Notes: generated by a model not told the origin, from the letters alone. Positions 4,071 to 31,626 are shown, counted from the first letter of the stretch. The stretch is 64,000 bases of DNA from Patescibacteria group bacterium (GCA_022703645.1 JAKLDG010000001.1:338814-402813); one strand, 5' to 3'. Made by a program: numbers and translations.

Positions 4071-4434
4071 GGTTTTTCCGCAAGTTTTTCAGTATTCCTT
4101 TTATTGTCGCGGGGAGTGTAGTTTTGGTACAAGTATAGTCACAGTATCCTAATTTAAGTAGTTCTCCCCCCTTCTTTTCAAAGGATGTGGGTATAATAAT
4201 TCTTACTTTAGGGTTTTTTTCGCGGATTTTTTCAACTAATTCTTTATAACGAAATCCGCGAATAGCGTCCTTTGAGGTGTACTTCAAAACGATAATGTCA
4301 TACTTAAATTCTTCCAAAACGCTTATATCCTTATTACTTCTTTTGAAAAAGATATCATGTTCCTTTAGTGAGATTGCATAGTGGGCTCGATAATAGTCCT
4401 CTCGTTCAACAATCAAAATCCCTTTCTTTCTCAT
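4057..4434 (-). CDS. pseudo-receiver (REC-like) domain protein lacking the phospho-acceptor Asp
   Basis: CheY-like layout (ILIVERED ... IIVLKYTSKD ... RIIIPTS ... KLGY), but Lys sits where the phosphorylated Asp is expected. Confidence 0.4.
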   Translation of the reverse strand: MRKKGILIVEREDYYRAHYAISLKEHDIFFKRSNKDISVLEEFKYDIIVLKYTSKDAIRGFRYKELVEKIREKNPKVRIIIPTSFEKKGGELLKLGYCDYTCTKTTLPATIKGILKNLRKNLIPK

Positions 4435-4526
4435 AGATATTATACCCCCCTTGTTTTTTTTAAATGAGCATCAAATAAAAAATAAAAAACCAGCATTTTG
4501 GTTTTATTTGTGTTATGTAATTTATA

Positions 4527-5219
4527 TTACAGGTTTTCTTGCCAAATGTCAAGAGCAATCCTTGCTGCCTCCTGTTCCGCAGCTTGTTTTGAAGACCCGG
4601 TTCCATCGGCAATCTTTTTATCTTCAAGATAAACACCCATTACAAAAACTTTTGCATGGTCTGGGCCCGATTCTTTTTCAACCTTATAGATTGGTGTAAT
4701 ACCTACTTTTTCCTGGGCTATTTCCTGAAACTTCGATTTTGGATCATAGTAAAGTTCCTTTGAAATAATCTCCGGTAAATAGGGAATTAAATACTTTTTA
4801 ATAAATTTACCCGCTGCCTCATACCCTTGATCAAGATATATTGCGCCAAGTACTGCCTCAAAGGTATTAGCAAGTATTAACTCTCTTGCTTTTCCAGTAG
4901 ACCTTGATTCTCCGCGCGATAGGAGTAGGTGGCTTTCATAACCAAGTTCCTTTGCTATTTTTGAAATCATAGTTCCTCTTACCAATGCCGCGCGCCAGTT
5001 TGTCAATTCTCCTTCAGGATTTGGGTAATTATTGTATAAATAGTCTGTAACAATTAATTCCATACATGCATCGCCAAGAAATTCAAGCCTTTCATTATGA
5101 TCAAGCTTGAAATCTTTATTTTCATTCAAATAGGATCTATGTACAAAAGCCTGCTGGAGTAAATCTTGATTCTTAAATTTTATACCTATTTTCTTTTCTA
5201 TTTCATTTAAATTGCTCAT
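4527..5219 (-). CDS. rnc: ribonuclease III
   Basis: ERLEFLGDA signature and a C-terminal dsRBD. Terminator hairpin with T-run downstream on the minus strand (about 4478-4506). Confidence 0.9.
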   Translation of the reverse strand: MSNLNEIEKKIGIKFKNQDLLQQAFVHRSYLNENKDFKLDHNERLEFLGDACMELIVTDYLYNNYPNPEGELTNWRAALVRGTMISKIAKELGYESHLLLSRGESRSTGKARELILANTFEAVLGAIYLDQGYEAAGKFIKKYLIPYLPEIISKELYYDPKSKFQEIAQEKVGITPIYKVEKESGPDHAKVFVMGVYLEDKKIADGTGSSKQAAEQEAARIALDIWQENL

Positions 5220-5306
5220 TTGAAATTCGCTTTGCTGAAATTCTAAGAAATTGAGGAAATTCTAATATCTAATTTCTCCAATTTCTTTTAATTTCTATTA
5301 ATTTTA

Positions 5307-6152
5307 TTATTTTAGTCTGCCGATATCTTCTACTGCCTTTTTGAATAAATCTACTAAGTTTGGATAATCTAGGTGATTCAAAACCTCTCCTTCTTCCACC
5401 CATTTAATTTCTTTAATATGAGCTTCCGGATTAATTATAGTATTTACCTGAGTAGTTCGTATAAGATAGAAGTGCACGCTTTTTTTGATAACCTCTTCGC
5501 CGCTTTTATCAGTAAATTTAATTTCGCCAACTTCACCAAGAATTTCAGCCTCAGTTATACCTGTTTCTTCTTGAATTTCTCTTACAGCTGCTTCTTGCCA
5601 AGTTTCTCCTTCTTCAACTTTACCTTTTGGAAAAGTCCATTTATCATAAGGGTTTTTGACAATTATAAAAAAGTTTTTCCCATTTTCTACGCGGTATATT
5701 ATTCCACCAGCGCTAATTATCAAGTTTTCTTCTTCATACTTACTACTTGCGCGGTAAATTGTTCCCAATACACCATTAATGAACTTACCACTGTTTTCTC
5801 CGCCAAATTCCTTACCAAGCTCCACAGCCTCATTAATAACCGCTTTTGGAGGCACTTCTGCATCATAAATCAACTCATAAATACCAATTCGCAATATAGA
5901 GCGGTCAATAGTGGCAATCTGTTCAAGAGGCCATTCGGGAGCAGTCTTTTTGATTAAGTCATTGATCTCTGATATTTTTTCCACCGTTCCTTTTATAATC
6001 TTACGGCAAAATTCCTCATCAACCTTAAAACCGGAATTTTCAATATTCCGTTTTAAAATTTCAGCAATATCTCTTTCTTCATCAAAATCCCACTCGTAAA
6101 GAGATTGTAAAACAACCATTCTTGACTGATGTCTAATAGATAGGTGAGACAT
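5307..6152 (-). CDS. nusB: NusB antitermination factor fused to a C-terminal Nudix hydrolase domain
   Basis: N-terminal 135 aa match NusB (VDRSILRIGIYEL..., INEAVELGKEFGG, FINGVL). The C-terminal 140 aa carry the Nudix box GKVEEGETWQEAAVREIQEETG. Confidence 0.85.
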   Translation of the reverse strand: MSHLSIRHQSRMVVLQSLYEWDFDEERDIAEILKRNIENSGFKVDEEFCRKIIKGTVEKISEINDLIKKTAPEWPLEQIATIDRSILRIGIYELIYDAEVPPKAVINEAVELGKEFGGENSGKFINGVLGTIYRASSKYEEENLIISAGGIIYRVENGKNFFIIVKNPYDKWTFPKGKVEEGETWQEAAVREIQEETGITEAEILGEVGEIKFTDKSGEEVIKKSVHFYLIRTTQVNTIINPEAHIKEIKWVEEGEVLNHLDYPNLVDLFKKAVEDIGRLK

Positions 6153-6578: not shown

Positions 6579-7145
6579 CTAAGCTCTTTTTGCAATATTC
6601 TTAGGGTTATTCATATCCCGACCCCACGTTGATGGATTTGATTCTATATAAGAATAAATTTCATCGTAAGATTTTTCATTGCGGATAATGTGTTCATAAT
6701 AGTTGCGTTGCCAGATACGATTTTCAAATGGTATTAATATATTTTGTTTAACCCCATCAATGCATTTTTTCGTTGTTAGTGATTTAAAACGTTGAATTAT
6801 TTGCGGCAATGACAGTTGTTTTTCTGTAGGGGCAAACCCCCGTGTTTGCCCGTTTTTAATTGGGCGGACACAGGGGTCCGCCCCTACGATACAGATAATC
6901 AAATGTATATGATTTGGCATAACAGAAAATATATCTACCTCGATATTTGAATAATACTTTGGGATTTCTTCTATCGTTTGGAAAATTATTATCCCAATAT
7001 CATTCAATCTCATCCCTCCATCAACAATTTCTCCGAACAAACACCCTCTATCTTGTGTACATATTGTAATAAAATAATCTCCGGGTTCGGAATAATCATA
7101 ACCTTTTATTCGTATTGACCTTCTGTTTTTGTTTTCTTTTTACAT
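6579..7145 (-). mobile_element. IS200-like Y1 HuH transposase of the REP-associated (RAYT) type, probably inactivated
   Basis: NHIHLII HuH motif and C-terminal YY catalytic region. The N-terminus (YDYSEPGDYFITICT...LFGEIVDG) matches its paralog at 20.9 kb. The ancestral ATG (7145-7143) is followed immediately by an in-frame TAA; the intact ORF only restarts at TTG 7040. A 66-bp GC-rich palindromic element sits in frame at 6824-6889. Confidence 0.65.
6824..6889. repeat. REPIN-like GC-rich palindromic element (two inverted REP hairpins with GTAG-containing termini), in frame inside the RAYT gene
   Basis: CTGTAGGGGC-[gggcaaac/gtttgccc hairpin]-gtttttaatt-[gggcggac/gtccgccc hairpin]-GCCCCTACGA. 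Far GC-richer than the flanks. On the minus strand it encodes VGADPCVRPIKNGQTRGFAPT. Confidence 0.7.
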
Positions 7146-7160
7146 TAGAACAATTGAGAA

Positions 7161-10070
7161 CTATCTCACAAAATTTACCAATCGATTTTTGACGTAAATT
7201 ATTTTTTTATAGTTTGTTGAAATTTCCTTGAATTTCTCCGTATCTTGAATGACTTTCAATGCGTCTTCCTCGCTCGCATCAAAAGGCATCAGAATATTAC
7301 CGCGGTGTTTGCCGTTTTCTTGAATTACTATTTCAATCATATCTTCTTTTATTTTTTCCGGGTCGTGTTTTGGCCAAGTAAATTTTCCGCTAAAAATACT
7401 TTCTTCAAATCCGAATTGTTGCCAGATTTCCTCCGCGATATGAGGGCAAATAGGAGATAGAAGCAGAATCAAAACCATGTATGGCTGCGGGTAATTATAT
7501 AACAGATCTTTTTTGCTAATTAAAAAGTTGGTAAATTCCATTAATGTCGATACGAGAGTGTTTAAGTGCAGGCGATCCAGATCTTCATTAAATTTCTTGA
7601 TTGTTTTATGTGTCATCACTTCCAGTTCCGTTTCTCCAATTTCAAAAGAATCGGTAATTATTTTTGCCGGATCTTTTTCTTCAACCCGAGGCGCAATTTC
7701 TTGGCCAAGATTCCAGACTTTATTTAGAAATCTCGAAACACCCTCTATTCCTTGGCTGCTCCATGCCGCATCTTGCTCGAAAGGACCGATGAACATTTCA
7801 TAAGCGCGGGCGGTATCAGCACCGTATTTTTCGACAATTTCATTCGGGTTTACTACATTTCCAAGGGATTTACTCATCTTTTTCCCATCTTCTGCTAATA
7901 TCATTCCATGATTAATTCTTTTGGCATAAGGCTCAGAAGTTGGCACAAGCCCAAGATCATGAAAGAAAATATTCCAAAATCTAGAATAAAGCAGATGAAG
8001 CGTGGTATGTTCCGGTCCGCCCTCGTAAATATCCACCGGCATCCAATATTTCAACTTTTCAAAATCAGCGAACTGTTTGTCATTATGAGGATCGATGTAG
8101 CGCAAGAAATACCATGACGAACCTGCCCAGTTCGGCATAGTATCTGTCTCTCTTACAGCAGGTCCATTGCACTTTGGGCAAGTCGTATTTACCCAGTCTG
8201 TAATCTTTGCAAGAGGGGATTGCCCGTCCTCGGTTGGTTCGTAATTTTCCACTTCAGGCAATAGCACAGGCAATTGATCTTCCGGTACAGCAACTTCACC
8301 GCAATTAGGACAATATACAATTGGGATAGGCTCGCCCCAATAATGTTGGCGTGAAAATATCCAGTCGCGCAGATGGTAGGTGGTTATAAAATCACCAAGC
8401 TTCTCATCTTTTAATTTTTGGGTAATCTTTTTTCGAGCTTCCTCAGAGCTTAATCCGGTAAAATCTTGCGAATTGATTAGTACACCATCTCTGGTATACG
8501 CCGGGATTTTCGCGCTCATTTTTTCCTGCCAGATGCCAACCTCGGCATGCGTCATATTAGCATAATTCAATTGCGATTCATCAAGCCAAATCACATCGTG
8601 GTCATCTTTTTCTTTTTGCGAAATATCTTCTTGTGTGTGGTCGACTAATTCAAATAGCACAGCAGTGGTATAAGAAATTCGATTTAAATCTTTGTGATTA
8701 GCAAAATACTCGGTTCGCGTTTGACCGAAAAGAACCCTGTCTAATTTTAAGTTTGTAAACCCAGTTTCTTCGGCAACTTCTCTTTTTGCAGCAGTTACCA
8801 CGTCTTCGCCTTCTTCAATGCCACCCATTGGAAAAGTCGTCCAATCAAAGTTTTTCCATTTAAGTCCAAGATATTTTCCAGTTTTTGGATCGCGAACTAT
8901 GGCATGAATATTTTTTCTTTCAACGGTCTTTTTACCCTCAACTGGCGGGTTTCTTTCATCAATAATATTTGGTACGACTACTTCTTCGATTTTAATTCCA
9001 TATTTAACGGCAAAAGCATAGTCGCGTGTATCGTGAGCGGGAACTGCCATGATAGCGCCTGTACCATAATCTGCAAGCACATAATCAGCAACCCAGACCT
9101 CTACTTTGCGTCCATTTATAGGGTTTATAGCAGTAATACCTTCTAATTTTACGCCCGTCTTTTCCTTATCCTCAACCATTCTTTCAATATTTGACTTTTT
9201 CTTTGATTCATTAATGTATTCCTTGACCTCTTCTAAATTCGAGATTCTATCTTCTAAATTCTTTATGTATCCCGATTCCGGTGCCAAGACAATATATGTA
9301 CAACCAAACAACGTGTCTACCCTAGTAGTGAAAACCTTTATACTAGATTCTAAATTCTTTATTCTAAATTCTATTTCGCTTCCTTCAGATTTTCCTATCC
9401 AGTTTTCCTGCATGAGTTTTACTCTTTCCGGATAATCAACATTTTTTAGCCCTTCGAGTAACTTATCTGCATAAGCTGTAATACGCAACATCCATTGATC
9501 AAGTTCTTTTTTACTTGCGGCAGTTCCGCATCTTTCACATTTTTCATCGATTACTTCTTCATTGGCTAGCCCTATTTTGCAGCTTGGACACCAGTTAATC
9601 GCCATTTTCTTTTTGTAAGCAAGGCCATTTTCATAAAATTTTAGAAAAAACCACTGTGTCCATTCGTAATAAGCCGGATCAGTAGTATCGATTTCGCGAG
9701 ACCAATCAAAAGAATAACCAAGACTTTTTTGTTGTTTCGTAAAATTTGCAATGTTTTGAGCGGTAGCAACCGACGGGTGGATTTTATGCTTTATTGCGTA
9801 GTTTTCAGTGGGCAGACCAAAAGCGTCCCATCCAACCGGAAGCATCACGTTGTAACCCTCGAGCCTTTTCTTGCGCGCAATAATATCAGAAGTAGTCTGA
9901 CCTCGAAGATGCCCCATATGCAGACCATCTCCGGATGGATAATTGAACTCAAACAACATATAGAACTTTGGTTTTTTATCAAAGTCTTTCGCATGATATA
10001 GATCGGGAATCTTTTCCCAGATATCCTGCCATTTTTTTTCGATTTCGTGAGGATTGTAGTTGGTTGACAT
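7161..10070 (-). CDS. leuS: leucyl-tRNA synthetase with an inserted Nudix hydrolase domain
   Basis: HMGH and KMSKS class-I motifs, CP1 editing-domain signatures (TTRVDTLFG, AHDTRDYAF), LeuRS-like termini. About aa 383-515 carry a Nudix box, GGIEEGEDVVTAAKREVAEETG. Confidence 0.9.
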   Translation of the reverse strand: MSTNYNPHEIEKKWQDIWEKIPDLYHAKDFDKKPKFYMLFEFNYPSGDGLHMGHLRGQTTSDIIARKKRLEGYNVMLPVGWDAFGLPTENYAIKHKIHPSVATAQNIANFTKQQKSLGYSFDWSREIDTTDPAYYEWTQWFFLKFYENGLAYKKKMAINWCPSCKIGLANEEVIDEKCERCGTAASKKELDQWMLRITAYADKLLEGLKNVDYPERVKLMQENWIGKSEGSEIEFRIKNLESSIKVFTTRVDTLFGCTYIVLAPESGYIKNLEDRISNLEEVKEYINESKKKSNIERMVEDKEKTGVKLEGITAINPINGRKVEVWVADYVLADYGTGAIMAVPAHDTRDYAFAVKYGIKIEEVVVPNIIDERNPPVEGKKTVERKNIHAIVRDPKTGKYLGLKWKNFDWTTFPMGGIEEGEDVVTAAKREVAEETGFTNLKLDRVLFGQTRTEYFANHKDLNRISYTTAVLFELVDHTQEDISQKEKDDHDVIWLDESQLNYANMTHAEVGIWQEKMSAKIPAYTRDGVLINSQDFTGLSSEEARKKITQKLKDEKLGDFITTYHLRDWIFSRQHYWGEPIPIVYCPNCGEVAVPEDQLPVLLPEVENYEPTEDGQSPLAKITDWVNTTCPKCNGPAVRETDTMPNWAGSSWYFLRYIDPHNDKQFADFEKLKYWMPVDIYEGGPEHTTLHLLYSRFWNIFFHDLGLVPTSEPYAKRINHGMILAEDGKKMSKSLGNVVNPNEIVEKYGADTARAYEMFIGPFEQDAAWSSQGIEGVSRFLNKVWNLGQEIAPRVEEKDPAKIITDSFEIGETELEVMTHKTIKKFNEDLDRLHLNTLVSTLMEFTNFLISKKDLLYNYPQPYMVLILLLSPICPHIAEEIWQQFGFEESIFSGKFTWPKHDPEKIKEDMIEIVIQENGKHRGNILMPFDASEEDALKVIQDTEKFKEISTNYKKIIYVKNRLVNFVR

Positions 10071-10109: not shown

Positions 10110-10197
10110 AATATCCAATACTCAATATCCAATATCCAATCAATAACCAATAAATTAAATATCCAATTGGGTATTGGGTGTTGGATATTGGTCATTC
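10110..10197. repeat. array of CCAATA/TATTGG palindromic repeats (ATATCCAAT ... ATTGGATAT) in the leuS upstream region
   Basis: Direct and inverted ATATCCAAT units. Shares the 17-mer GGATATTGGTCATTSSA with the sites at 15.8 kb and 61.25 kb. Confidence 0.6.
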
Positions 10198-10483: not shown

Positions 10484-10613
10484 AAATATTAATTAATTTT
10501 CAATTTTACAATTCTCAATTTCCAATCAATTCTCAATGATTCAATTTCTAAATGCTATCGCAAAGCGATACCTACAATGAAAATTGCAAAATTGAGAATT
10601 GAAAATTTCCTTA

Positions 10614-11561: not shown

Positions 11562-11702
11562 AGTGATAAATTTAAAATTTCTAAATTATAAATTATAATA
11601 TCTAATAAAATGTCCAAAGAAAAATTCTAAATATTTTGATTTTTTGTCATTAAGATTTTTATTAGAAATTATAATTTAGATATTATGGGAAAATTATTAT
11701 TT

Positions 11703-13603: not shown

Positions 13604-14923
13604 CTATTTTGTCAACTCGAGTACTACTAAAGCCTCAATATGCGGAGTGCGGGGAAAAAAATTATAGAGCTTCATAAATTTTATATCGTATTTATCTTTG
13701 AGAATACTGATATCGCGGGCTTGTGTGGCGATATTGCATGACAGATAAATTATTTTTTTGGGGGTTACTTCAATCAGTCGATCTAATACTTTATCATGGA
13801 GTCCAGCTCGAGGCGGATCAAATATGATGGTTTTATCTTTTTCAATATAATCAAGAGCTTTTTCAGCAGGGGATAGAGTGGCTTCGCAATTACCGATTTT
13901 ATTTAATCCAATATTTTCTTGCGCAAAACTAACTGCCTCCATATTAGATTCAACTAGTTGGTTCGCGCCTATGGATAAACCAATAGCGCCAACGCCGGAG
14001 TAAAAATCGATAATACGCGAATTACTCGAATTTTGCGAATTTTCGCGAATTGAATCGGAAATGTCTTTTAATGCCATTTCAAAAACGGGAATATTTACTT
14101 GGAAAAATGAATTTATCCCATATTTGAATTGTTTGCCCGCGATTTCCTCTATTAGAAAATCTTGTCCTTTCTGGTATAAAACTTCCGTAATCACAGAAGC
14201 AGGGGACTTGTGTGTCGAATAGTACAGATTAAATCCGATAAATTTTTTATCGAGCATAGGATAGTTATCGAAAGTAAGTTTATCTTTTATAAATAACCCT
14301 GCGACAGTTTCGCCCTTCATATTCGAACGAACGATCAAAGCCTTCATATTGCGCATGGTTAGCGATGTAGAGTTAACCCAATCCAATATCTTTTTTGCGG
14401 TATCGTTTATCGCGTCTGTTGCAAGCTCACAACTTTCGATAGGAATTCTAACCTTTTGTCCGCGTTTGAAAAATGCAAGTGAAATTTTTTCATCCACCCC
14501 TTCAACAAAAGAAAATTCCATTTTATTGCGATAACCGGATTCAACATTGTTGGTTTCGATCTGTAGGGGCAACCCTTGCGGTTGCCCTTTTTTGGCAGGG
14601 GCAAGCCCTGCCCCTACGGATATCCCTCCAATTCGTCGGTATGTTTCGTTCGCGGCTTCTTTCTTCATTTCGTTTTCATAATCAATGTCCATCATTGCCC
14701 AAGCAGAGCATGATAGAAAATGATCTTCATTTGGTTTAATTCGATGGGGCGAAGGTTTGACAAAGTTTACCGCAAGACATTCGTAAATTCCTTTTCGTTT
14801 GTTAATAATTTCCGCTTCAACTTCTTCTCCCGGTAAAGCATTCCAAATAAAATAAGTGTAATCATTCTCATGCGCAATACCCTGGCCGCCATCAACTAAT
14901 TTTTCAATTTTGAGTTTAACCAT
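13604..14923 (-). CDS. RNA (uracil-C5)-methyltransferase, RlmD/TrmA family, carrying an in-frame REPIN-like insertion
   Basis: N-terminal TRAM-like domain; SAM MTase motifs DFYSGVGAIG, FDPPRAG, YLSCNIAT. The element at 14561-14619 encodes VGAGLAPAKKGQPQGLPLQ in frame. Confidence 0.8.
   Translation of the reverse strand: MVKLKIEKLVDGGQGIAHENDYTYFIWNALPGEEVEAEIINKRKGIYECLAVNFVKPSPHRIKPNEDHFLSCSAWAMMDIDYENEMKKEAANETYRRIGGISVGAGLAPAKKGQPQGLPLQIETNNVESGYRNKMEFSFVEGVDEKISLAFFKRGQKVRIPIESCELATDAINDTAKKILDWVNSTSLTMRNMKALIVRSNMKGETVAGLFIKDKLTFDNYPMLDKKFIGFNLYYSTHKSPASVITEVLYQKGQDFLIEEIAGKQFKYGINSFFQVNIPVFEMALKDISDSIRENSQNSSNSRIIDFYSGVGAIGLSIGANQLVESNMEAVSFAQENIGLNKIGNCEATLSPAEKALDYIEKDKTIIFDPPRAGLHDKVLDRLIEVTPKKIIYLSCNIATQARDISILKDKYDIKFMKLYNFFPRTPHIEALVVLELTK
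14561..14619. repeat. REPIN-like GC-rich palindromic element, in frame inside the RNA methyltransferase gene
   Basis: CTGTAGGGGC-[gggcaacc/ggttgccc hairpin]-tttttt-[gcagggg...cccctgc hairpin]-GCCCCTACGG. Same termini and two-hairpin architecture as the element at 6824-6889. Confidence 0.7.
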
Positions 14924-15620: not shown

Positions 15621-15730
15621 CCCTTTCTGTTTTTAAAATAACGCGCAACAAGTGCGACTTGCATATTATACTACTAATTTTTTGACTTAACAAGAAGGTT
15701 TTTGTAAAAAAAGCGCAGAGGAGGTATAAT

Positions 15731-15838
15731 AAATATCCAATACCCAATACGCAATACTCAATCAATTTTATAATACTCAATACCCATTGGATATTAAATT
15801 ATTGGATATTTATTGGTCATTGGACATTGGAAATTGGG
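15731..15838. repeat. array of CCAATA/TATTGG palindromic repeats between divergent genes, overlapping a candidate promoter
   Basis: aaatatccaatacccaatacgcaatactcaat ... attggatattaaattattggatatttattggtcattggacattggaaattgggtat. A candidate TTGGAC ... TATAAT promoter pair sits at about 15817-15845. Confidence 0.6.
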
Positions 15839-15864
15839 TATTATAATTTTTGCATAAAAATACT

Positions 15865-20599: not shown

Positions 20600-21183
20600 G
20601 TGTTGGCAATTATAAATTCATGGTATTTTTCCTTAAAATATTCTTAGGATTATTGCTGTCTCGTTCCCACATTTGCGGATTGGATTCTATGTAACTATAA
20701 ATTTCATCGTACGATTTTTCATTGCGAATGATGTGTTCGTAATAGCCGCGTTGAAAAATGGGGTTGCCTGTTTTGTCTAAGATAATATTTATCTTTTTCG
20801 TTGATTGATATTTAAAATACCCAATTATTTGTCCTAATGTTGGTTTTTTATCCCGTAGGGGCGGGGTCTCCCCGCCCTGAATTAAATTGTTTTTGTTACC
20901 TACAAATATCGTTTTTCTCTTCTAATATCCGCAATATAAAATGAATATGATTTGGCATTATCTGAAAAATATCTAATTTTGTATTTGGGAAATGATTCGG
21001 AATTTCGTACCAACATTTTTCTGCAACATTTCCAATCTTATTTAATTCCATTTTCCCATCCACAATTTCCCCAAACAAACATTCTCTGTCTTTTGTGCAG
21101 ATCGTAACAAAATAATCTCCAGGTTCGGAATAATCATATTCTTTAATCCGTATCGATTTTCTATTTCGTTCGATTTTTGACAT
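20600..21183 (-). pseudogene. degraded IS200-like RAYT transposase paralog (N-terminal 95 aa intact, C-terminal part out of frame)
   Basis: MSKIERNRKSIRIKEYDYSEPGDYFVTICT...MPNHIHFIL aligns with the 6.6-7.1 kb copy. DNA downstream (20600-20850) is highly similar to 6579-6830 but no longer in frame. A GC-rich REP-like hairpin sits at the equivalent position. Confidence 0.6.
20851..20903. repeat. truncated REPIN-like element (single GC hairpin plus GCCCCTACGG terminus) inside the RAYT pseudogene
   Basis: On the minus strand: tgtaggtaac-aaaaacaatttaattc-agggcgggg-aga-ccccgccc-ctacggg. Lacks hairpin 1 and carries the stop codon that ends the ORF. Confidence 0.55.
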
Positions 21184-30575: not shown

Positions 30576-30685
30576 ATCAAAATGCAAATATCAAAGTGTA
30601 AAATGACAAATTAAAATTAAAAATGTATAATATGCCAAAGGCATACCAAAATTTTACATTTTGATTTTTAAATTTTAAATTTATC
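30576..30685. repeat. palindromic AT-rich repeat unit (GTGTAAAATGACAAATTAAAATTAAAAATG ... CAAAATTTTACATTTTGATTTTTAAATTTT) with a central tatgcc-aaa-ggcata hairpin
   Basis: Both arms match the AAAATGTAAAATGACA family. Lies between divergent genes (the PspC-domain gene and xth). Confidence 0.55.
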
Positions 30686-31450
30686 ATGAAGATTATTTCT
30701 TTCAATATTAACGGCATCAACTCGGCCATCAAATATGGTTTGCGGGATTTTATATCTCTAGAAAATGCCGATATCTACTTGTTCCAAGAAGTAAAAAATT
30801 CCTGGGATACTATTGATGACTCTTTGCGGAAAATTCCGGGTTACGAAACATATTTTTACCAAGCAGCAAAAAAAGGATATTCCGGACTTCTTGCATACGT
30901 GAAAACGAAGAACAAACCAATCGGATACAAGGAGGGTATAGGGTTTAGGGTTATAGACGAACAAGCGAGAGTGCAGACATTAGAATTCCAGGATTATTAT
31001 TTAGTTAATACCTATCTACCACATTCAGGAAGGGAACTTGAGAAACTTCCATTCAAACGTGAAGTAAACGAAAAATTCCTCGAATACTGTGAGTCTTTGA
31101 AAAAGAAAAAGCCACTTATAATTGCAGGGGATCTGAATGTTGCGCACAAAGATATTGATCTCGCCAATCCTCGCGCCAATATGGGAAACGCCGGATTTAC
31201 GACGGATGAGAGAGATTTTTTCGATAAATTCTTATCCCACGGATATATCGATACATTCCGCGAATTTGTAAAAGAAAATGGCCACTATACCTGGTGGAGC
31301 TGGCGGACAGGGGTACGCGAAAGAAATATCGGTTGGCGCATTGATTATTTTCTCGTCTCTGAAAATATTTCAAAACGAGTGAAAAAGAGTTGGATTCTGA
31401 AAGACATTCTCGGATCCGATCATTGCCCGATAGGATTAGAAATCCTGTAG
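30686..31450 (+). CDS. xth: exodeoxyribonuclease III (AP endonuclease)
   Basis: ISFNINGI; YTWWSWRTG ... WRIDYFLVS; GSDHCPI. The stop codon TAG lies inside a CTGTAGGGGC REP-like terminus. Confidence 0.9.
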   Translation: MKIISFNINGINSAIKYGLRDFISLENADIYLFQEVKNSWDTIDDSLRKIPGYETYFYQAAKKGYSGLLAYVKTKNKPIGYKEGIGFRVIDEQARVQTLEFQDYYLVNTYLPHSGRELEKLPFKREVNEKFLEYCESLKKKKPLIIAGDLNVAHKDIDLANPRANMGNAGFTTDERDFFDKFLSHGYIDTFREFVKENGHYTWWSWRTGVRERNIGWRIDYFLVSENISKRVKKSWILKDILGSDHCPIGLEIL

Positions 31451-31500
31451 GGGCGCAAAATTTTAAGCCCTTTTTTTGGGGCGTTATGTGTAGCATTCCT
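31445..31500. repeat. degenerate REPIN-like element (CTGTAGGGGC-gcaaaattttaa-gccc-ttttttt-ggggcg...) at the 3' end of xth
   Basis: Shares the 10-bp 5' terminus and T-rich spacer with the elements at 6824 and 14561; the 3' half has decayed. Confidence 0.45.
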
Positions 31501-31626
31501 ACAAAACCGTTCTTTCTTTGGCTTTTATAACGTAAAATTAACCATGCGCTTTATATTGGACTTTTTTTAAATTTAGCATAGAATAGGAGATAAGAAAACA
31601 AAAAAGCAATAAATCAATAAATCAAA

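Follow-up and report, generated by a model that had tools for sequence, protein, structure and literature searches.

GTAG-type REP elements within genes of a small, AT-rich Patescibacteria genome

REP elements of the window

The DNA analysed here, referred to as the window, is one 64 kb stretch of a Patescibacteria genome of ~0.87 Mb. It carries four GC-rich palindromic elements (A to D) of the repetitive extragenic palindrome (REP) type, together with two genes for a REP-associated tyrosine transposase (RAYT, also called TnpA_REP). Element A (6826-6887) lies within the first RAYT gene, element B (14563-14617) within a gene for an RlmD/RumA-family RNA U5-methyltransferase, element C (20855-20903) within the second RAYT gene, and element D (31447-31502) at the 3' end of xth. 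The genome is both AT-rich and reduced, as the preliminary description of this DNA had proposed; its GC content is ~37%, against ~70% in the element segments. The host-genome DNA inspected amounts to ~105 kb (the window and the loci L084 and L086) of ~867 kb. It contains seven elements, and all the intact ones are intragenic.

In each repeated unit a GC-rich hairpin of 7-9 bp follows a GTAG foot, and two inverted units make a double-foot doublet, GTAG…CTAC. Element A is such a doublet, composed of two inverted REPs (6826-6851 and 6862-6887), with CTGTAGGGGC (6824-6833) and GCCCCTACGA (6880-6889) at its ends. On the plus strand it reads GTAG-GGGCAAAC-ccccgt-GTTTGCCC-gtttttaatt-GGGCGGAC-acaggg-GTCCGCCC-CTAC, so that two perfect 8-bp stems (GGGCAAAC/GTTTGCCC and GGGCGGAC/GTCCGCCC), each with a 6-nt loop, are separated by a T-rich spacer. 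The arms are 81% complementary, and when folded as DNA the entire element forms one long hairpin like that of a REPIN (REP doublet forming a hairpin), at -21.5 and -23.9 kcal/mol (z -5.2 and -5.7).

Element B, also a doublet, reads GTAG-GGGCAACC-cttgc-GGTTGCCC-tttttt-GGCAGGG-gcaag-CCCTGCC-CCTAC. It has an 8-bp stem (GGGCAACC/GGTTGCCC) and a 7-bp stem (GGCAGGG/CCCTGCC, foot GTAG+1), with 5-nt loops and TTTTTT as the spacer. Its arms are different REP variants that fold into two separate inverted hairpins; a single REPIN-type hairpin is not formed. Element C consists of one intact unit (20855-20877; GTAG followed by GGGCGGGG, tct and CCCCGCCC, a perfect 8-bp stem with a 3-nt loop) and a degraded second half with CCTAC at its end (20903). 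Element D is a probable decayed doublet, which retains GTAGGGGC, a T7 spacer, GGGGC and a terminal CCTAC; an intact stem is absent. One or two perfect 8-bp hairpins were at first ascribed to all four elements; A has two, B and C have one each, and D has none.

The repetition of these sequences exceeds chance. GTAGGGGC occurs six times in the window; in 100 dinucleotide-preserving shuffles it averaged 0.57 occurrences and never exceeded 4. Single-strand DNA folding, compared with 200 shuffles of each element, gave plus-strand z values of -5.2 for A, -4.6 for B and -3.9 for C, with no shuffle as stable (0/200). For D, the value of -0.9 is not significant. Both the anatomy and these statistics bear out the earlier recognition of GTAG-footed REP doublets, and the proposed folding check supports A, B and C, though not D. 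A further test is the form by which GTAG-type REPs are recognised, namely a GC-rich stem of 7 bp or more, paired throughout and closed by a short loop, with GT[AG]G 0-2 nt to its 5' side. It was found in A, B and C and not in D; the 6-nt loops of A exceed the 2-5 nt loop rule used in searching by 1 nt.

A and B are the intact doublets of the window (GTAGGGGC…GCCCCTAC), and there is no other. A scan of the 64 kb for GC-rich islands, half-sites and one-mismatch patterns returned no extra copy, only chance GTAGGGG in ordinary coding DNA. When the window copies were aligned with copies from related DNA they formed one family, with conserved feet and with stems that vary yet are self-complementary. 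Each GTAG foot is preceded on its 5' side by two pyrimidines, which are CT in A, B and D as well as in the L083 copy described below. On neither strand of the window did any Rfam family reach its gathering threshold; the hairpins therefore do not represent a known RNA family.

The reading frame of the elements is also constrained. When GTAG comes first, one frame gives a TAG stop and the other two give VGA and xRG, while at the CTAC end none of the three frames has a stop. Element A is in frame in the open reading frame (ORF) 6579-7040 and B in the ORF 13604-14923, both on the minus strand, and both are read as GTA GGG GCx (V-G-A). The encoded peptides are VGADPCVRPIKNGQTRGFAPT (21 aa) for A and VGAGLAPAKKGQPQGLPLQ for B.

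Genes that carry the elements

The RAYT gene containing element A, paralog A (6579-7145, minus strand), has 6579-7040 as its longest ORF with a start codon, and the JGI-called product of 153 aa (P0001) matches exactly. The ancestral ATG (7145-7143) is immediately followed by TAA at codon 2 (7142-7140), where paralog C has TCA; paralog A is therefore probably a pseudogene or N-terminally truncated. Its HUH motif (PNHIH), its WQ motif (IWQRNYYEH) and its Y motif (YIESNP) are present. The RAYT length is 186 aa, compared with a median of 194 for TnpA_REP subclass 2.4, to which paralog A is similar. Pfam Y1_Tnp (PF01797) matches the ORF 6579-7040 at 28.6 bits (cutoff 23). The best NCBIfam match is REP_Tyr_transpos (NF047646, 'REP-associated tyrosine transposase') with 59.2 bits and E 4e-16, below its cutoff of 80, and the model alignment is split by the insert. 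These matches agree with the earlier assignment of RAYT-type HUH-Y1 genes next to the elements.

Paralog C (20610-21183, minus strand) is otherwise full-length, and is frameshifted within the decayed half of its REP. The upstream frame stops at 20896-20898, the frameshift region spans 20896-20905, and WQ has changed to FQ. Paralog C is thus probably a pseudogene as well. Element C had been taken for an insertion that disrupted this gene; it is instead the gene's own family-typical internal REP, half decayed and frameshifted. Two RAYT copies are present in the window, as was first described, but both look inactivated.

Intact paralogs (P0044 and P0112) exist elsewhere in the same genome, which has at least four diverged RAYT paralogs with 53-61% mutual identity, each with a different internal REP. 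P0044 has a single internal double-foot REP (GTAGGGGCGGGTTTgaAACCCGCCCCTAC), and P0112 has an internal doublet, both 24-nt arms of which are identical to those of element B. The HUH motif is MPNHIH in A and C and MPNH[IL]H in P0044 and P0112. The Y motif, YIxNNP in the subclass 2.4 signature, is YIESNP in A and C, YIESNS in P0044 and YILSNP in P0112. Within 1 kb of these four genes no GTAG hairpin was found besides the internal copies. A tyrosine recombinase (Phage_integrase) gene lies 20 nt upstream of the P0044 gene (L084 6926-10528; L085 222-1590), and in L084 the P0044 gene also adjoins a HaeIII-type restriction-modification pair, which suggests an island-like neighbourhood.

The preliminary description had treated element A as a local invasion of the RAYT gene, adding 22 aa. 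That it is in frame, and in the VGA frame, holds; its length is 21 aa, and it is not a local invasion. Among 5598 homologs found, 28 were aligned (from Patescibacteria, Chloroflexi, Deltaproteobacteria, Acetothermia, Edwardsbacteria and others). In this alignment a segment of the form VGAxPxxxP…GQxQGxAPT lies at the same position, directly after MPNH(I/V/F)HGII. V85, G86, A87, G97 and G101 are almost invariant and the length of the segment is highly variable, while W143, Q144, Y164, I165 and N168 are invariant. The segment is almost universal in homologs from Patescibacteria, Chloroflexi, Deltaproteobacteria, Bacteroidetes, Cyanobacteria and other groups, and is encoded by GTAG-footed GC-rich hairpins.

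A survey at the DNA level gave the same result. Among the matches listed, 80 homologous genome loci were examined, 76 of them with a recognisable HUH motif. In 57 of these 76 loci, from many phyla, a GTAG-footed perfect hairpin (stem of at least 7 bp) lies within 260 nt after the HUH codons. Hairpin density in this interval is 5.3/kb, compared with 0.21/kb in the flanks. The 5' foot is read as VGA at 47 loci and as xRG at nine; the TAG frame was found at none.

In paralog A the GTAG…CTAC doublet encodes residues 85-105, between beta3 (the HUH strand) and alphaC, with the frame kept. The AlphaFold model (mean pLDDT, predicted local distance difference test, 81) shows residues 87-105 as disordered, between the strand 77-84 and the helix 111-131. 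The RAYT-internal copy is therefore the hallmark internal REP of the subfamily, translated as a disordered linker; the ortholog alignment proposed as a check on insertion gave, for RAYT, the opposite outcome. Many RAYT homologs have tandem short-unit expansions in the REP-coded linker (L108, L147, L168, L202 and L142; P0117, P0070 and P0095), such as VAPIVAQND x5, VAPNDA x7, AVVQN x8 and PRAYPDSG x4. Because of these expansions, the distance from the HUH motif to the Y motif varies greatly.

The situation differs in the RlmD gene (13604-14923, minus strand; P0121 is 100% identical), where element B encodes residues 103-121. Removal of the REP-coded segment in the manner of an intein or intron was considered; the ORF is annotated as one continuous product by both NCBI and JGI. 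The catalytic motifs (DPPR and the SCN cysteine) are intact. In an alignment of 22 sequences (the window and 21 orthologs), the insertion is missing from 18 of the 21 orthologs. Only the two nearest relatives of the window with this feature, P0122 and P0124, show REP-like sequence at this site, and the other orthologs have a short variable loop. The site of the syntenic, 68% identical relative L082 is essentially empty at the codon level (ATT GAT CTG GGG TCG CTA GAG ATT), although its sequence may represent a collapsed remnant. In the AlphaFold model (mean pLDDT 89.5), residues 103-121 sit between the helix 80-97 and the strand 121-123, and the single long low-confidence stretch (105-117) falls inside the insert. 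The RlmD copy is a true lineage-restricted, in-frame insertion in a variable, disordered surface loop; here the earlier claim was sustained by both the ortholog alignment and the codon-level comparison.

Three related lineages, namely the window, L081 and L083, have different REPs at exactly the same RlmD codon position. L081 has a single REP (GTAGGGGCGATTCatGAATCGCCC), and L083 has the doublet GTAG-GGGCAGAC-ccctgt-GTCTGCCC…GGGCGAAC-acgggg-GTTCGCCC-CTAC. Between element A and the L083 doublet there is one compensatory base pair change per arm (GGGCGGAC/GTCCGCCC vs GGGCAGAC/GTCTGCCC, and GGGCAAAC/GTTTGCCC vs GGGCGAAC/GTTCGCCC). RlmD orthologs of related members of the Candidate Phyla Radiation (CPR) contain REP-derived peptides at several sites, up to four in P0124, in the frames VGA… and CRG… (L083 594-1985; L081 6001-7284). 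Two further RlmD REP sites were verified in DNA. At one such site the window RlmD has RENSQNSSNSR, which may be a fully decayed copy.

Element D affects the end of a gene rather than its interior. The ORF of xth (exonuclease III family; 30686-31450, plus strand) runs to 31450 and takes its stop codon, the TAG at 31448-31450, from the GTAG foot of D (31447-31450); its last codon is also supplied by the element. The C-terminus is …GLEIL* in the window and …GLEIKE* in the syntenic relative L082. The earlier attribution of the stop to D was correct; the end of the element is 31502, which differs from that first given.

Another in-frame REP doublet, encoding VGAGISPARIKGRPQGSPLR, lies in mnmA (tRNA 2-thiouridylase) at the P0112 locus of the same species (L086 5533-5590, in a gene at 4417-5706). 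Two AT-rich inserts of low complexity, NIKYQKKSKISHLSFEIDSKFDICNL and FNFQFSIFNQYSIPNIQ, are present in MnmA as well.

The window has two further features. Intergenic inverted repeats of a second class, which is AT-rich, has CAAT/ATTG-rich units (e.g., AATATCCAATACTCAATATCCAAT / ATTGGGTATTGGGTGTTGGATATT) and bears no relation to the GTAG elements, are found at 10110-10189, 10502-10608, 11582-11685, 15728-15846 and 30579-30683. The leucyl-tRNA synthetase gene (7161-10070, minus strand) encodes a NUDIX hydrolase domain (PF00293, residues 407-506, E 3.6e-12) after the editing domain, and the synthetase of the syntenic relative has the same NUDIX match (L082 12447-13263).

Origin of the in-frame copies

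The four elements probably belong to a population of GTAG-type REPs of a TnpA_REP subclass 2.4 (RAYT group 4) system, residing in this small, AT-rich Patescibacteria genome. An intact RAYT (P0044 or P0112) would bind the folded hairpin on single-stranded DNA, cleave at a CT/YY dinucleotide 5' or 3' of the REP using GTAG as a guide, and re-join the ends, giving rise to new copies. In a gene-dense genome most landing sites would be coding. Selection would then retain only copies that have a length divisible by three, stay out of the TAG frame and lie in tolerant loops or at gene ends; such copies would afterwards decay toward AT, as C and D may have done. The in-frame state is best explained by survivorship of this kind in a gene-dense genome; one of the three GTAG frames is a stop, and the CTAC foot is fully open. 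Hairpin- and GTAG-guided CT cleavage and re-joining have been reported in vitro for the TnpA_REP of E. coli, Stenotrophomonas and Marinomonas (PMC8266576), which are group 2 and 3 enzymes. For this genome, mobilisation of REPs by a cognate RAYT, including the cleavage step, is inferred.

Several points weigh against this reading. Firstly, the REP_Tyr_transpos score is under the curated cutoff, and both RAYT genes of the window appear inactivated. Secondly, D was identified by layout alone, without significant structure, and is a probable copy. Thirdly, both the copy number and the intragenic share are extrapolations from ~105 kb. In addition, the identity between the arms of element B and those of P0112 was considered as proof of recent copying and then dropped. 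The exact 24-nt arm (GTAGGGGCAACCCTTGCGGTTGCC) occurs in more than 120 unrelated metagenome contigs among the matches listed, and this weakens the case for recent copying of B from P0112. Finally, the different REPs at one RlmD site could have arisen from a single old insertion that later underwent turnover or conversion, or by repeated targeting.

Repeated, site-specific homing to the RlmD position, in place of one ancestral insertion followed by turnover, is rather unlikely. It would account for the three REP variants that the window, L081 and L083 carry at the same codon position, and for the REP-like peptides found at several distinct sites in RlmD orthologs of the clade. These three hosts are, however, mutually closest (63-75% identity), which fits a single old insertion. 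The L082 site (CTG GGG TCG CTA GAG) shares 10 of 15 positions with a collapsed GTAGGGG…CCTACAG, which suggests loss and not primary absence. A conserved target sequence beyond the pyrimidine pair 5' of GTAG is not apparent in the copies compared.

It is less probable still that the internal REP is a functional cis element, i.e., a protected source ('master') copy, an autoregulatory site or mRNA hairpin, or both, with the gene and its REP forming one unit. The position of the internal REP is conserved across phyla, and its hairpin is kept by compensatory changes while the peptide varies. Every RAYT in the ~105 kb has an internal REP, no clean flanking intergenic REP is present, and the arms of the RlmD doublet equal those of the internal doublet of P0112. 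The same 24-nt arm also occurs in RAYT proteins that are only 48-68% mutually identical. In the 80 contigs analysed (L088-L167), which have a GC content of 30-69%, the 24-mer is found in RAYT genes, in other ORFs and in non-coding DNA, so that one REP is common to very different organisms. However, this contig set is biased, having been chosen by searching with that exact 24-mer. Moreover, seven of the 76 listed loci lack both feet (the 'empty' state) and 19 lack a perfect hairpin, yet their ORFs look intact. The segment also lies away from the DNA-binding and catalytic sites and is likely neutral according to Quentin et al. (PMC6006769).

In its most specific form, this alternative would make the internal doublet a protected source, and the gene with its REP a self-contained unit movable between phyla. 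The REP population of the CPR would then be essentially intragenic, present as in-frame loop insertions in housekeeping genes. Such a scheme would explain the same 24-nt arm in contigs of 30-69% GC and in RAYT genes of ~50% identity; on the sequences compared here it nevertheless appears doubtful.

That the 19-21 aa segments are ancestral Gly/Pro/Ala-rich linker coding sequence, immobile and palindromic only as a by-product, can be practically dismissed: the VGA…APT motif is indeed conserved in RAYT homologs, as the refuting condition set at first supposed, but it is the DNA foot and stem complementarity that are conserved and not the peptide, with paired stem changes between copies; the reading frame and orientation of the same DNA differ between genes (VGA vs CRG; APT vs PLQ vs PY); its GC content is far above that of the genome; the same element is found in RlmD, MnmA and the xth end and is absent from most orthologs, which do not generally encode the segment with non-palindromic, AT-rich codons; and the exact arm is also non-coding in many contigs. 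It is the variation in frame and orientation, the compensatory stem changes and the GC contrast that lead to rejection of this reading.

A subclass 2.4 REP population, maintained in genes by survivorship, thus remains the preferred explanation, and it has several implications. It extends the host range of group 4/subclass 2.4 RAYTs with internal REPs, and that of in-frame intragenic GTAG REPs, to the CPR. For annotation, it means that peptides like VGAxxxxxP, GQxQGxAPT, GNRKGCPY and CRGxxxxxP in CPR or metagenomic proteins are translated REP DNA and not functional motifs, and that housekeeping proteins, RlmD and MnmA among them, seem richer in 'insertions' on account of translated REPs. The intragenic location of all intact copies, and the presence of one arm across different base compositions, also make it testable whether the internal REP acts as a source copy and a vehicle of horizontal spread.

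Comparison with known systems

The preliminary description regarded intragenic REPINs as new. This does not hold, since intragenic REPs were described by both Quentin et al. in 2018 (PMC6006769) and Di Nocera et al. in 2013 (PMC3733652). Both placements, within a RAYT gene and within ordinary genes, are already published, and the window is a further example. What is new is the host, a Patescibacteria genome of ~0.87 Mb, the intragenic location of all intact copies in ~105 kb, and the REP-derived inserts at several RlmD sites. A literature search for REP or RAYT in Patescibacteria turned up no reports.

Subclass 2.4 of Quentin, Siguier, Chandler and Fichant (2018), which is group 4 of Bertels, Gallie and Rainey (2017), is characterised by NH[IFV]H, WQ and YIxNNP motifs, a median length of 194 aa, and 'long' and 'double foot' REPs (PMC6006769). 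It is found in Cyanobacteria, Bacteroidetes and various other phyla, and its REPs occur in frame inside the tnpA_REP gene, in the loop between HuH and Y that separates beta3 from alphaC (PMC6006769). In the REP table of that paper GTAGGGGC appears 105 times; the excerpted rows belong to subclass 2.4, and the table has no Patescibacteria (PMC6006769). The RAYT genes described here share with this subclass NHIH and, as a close though inexact match, WQ (FQ in paralog C) and a YIxNNP-like motif (S in place of N in YIESNP), together with a length of ~190 aa and the absence of a C-terminal extension. They also share REPs that start with GTAGGGGC and have CTAC as the reverse foot, located in frame between beta3 and alphaC, variable in length and predicted to be peripheral or disordered. 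Again as in the subclass, more than one diverged copy is present per genome, and the genes are scattered across phyla. The differences are that the host phylum, Patescibacteria/CPR, lies outside the sample of Quentin et al., that two of the four paralogs are inactivated, and that the Y motifs deviate. Clear REPs flanking the RAYT genes are also absent from the inspected DNA; flanking REPs were reported for 'the large majority' of TnpA_REP genes, not for all (PMC6006769).

Di Nocera, De Gregorio and Rocco (2013) catalogued GTAG REPs located in frame within genes of many species; the dimers encode 20-30 aa, and genes of RNA-modification enzymes are among the hosts (PMC3733652). As here, the elements of Opitutus terrae, Pseudomonas putida and Xanthomonas are hairpin monomers or dimers in frame in housekeeping genes, including tRNA-related ones, and the GTAG-1 peptides of P. 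putida likewise begin with VGAG…. Those hosts have large, GC-rich genomes, in which intragenic copies are a small minority of hundreds. In contrast, the genome examined here is small and AT-rich, and the intact copies seen are all intragenic.

Rickettsia palindromic elements (RPEs) are about 100-150 bp long and are not known to have an associated RAYT gene. They resemble the elements of the window in being palindromes in frame in essential genes of a reduced genome, in surface loops (Ogata et al. 2000, as summarised in PMC3733652). The likeness is incomplete: in R. conorii, RPE-4 and RPE-6 are short intragenic repeats with a CGTC tag, and RPE-1 is a longer palindromic insertion (PMC3733652).

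The REPIN-RAYT systems of Pseudomonas and E. coli (groups 2 and 3; Bertels and Rainey 2011) differ in having hundreds of extragenic REPINs, which have near-identical arms and flank a single-copy RAYT gene, whereas the arms of element B are unlike each other. What they have in common with the window is the combination of inverted, paired GTAG REPs with an HUH-Y1 gene, and element A, like a REPIN, folds into one long hairpin.

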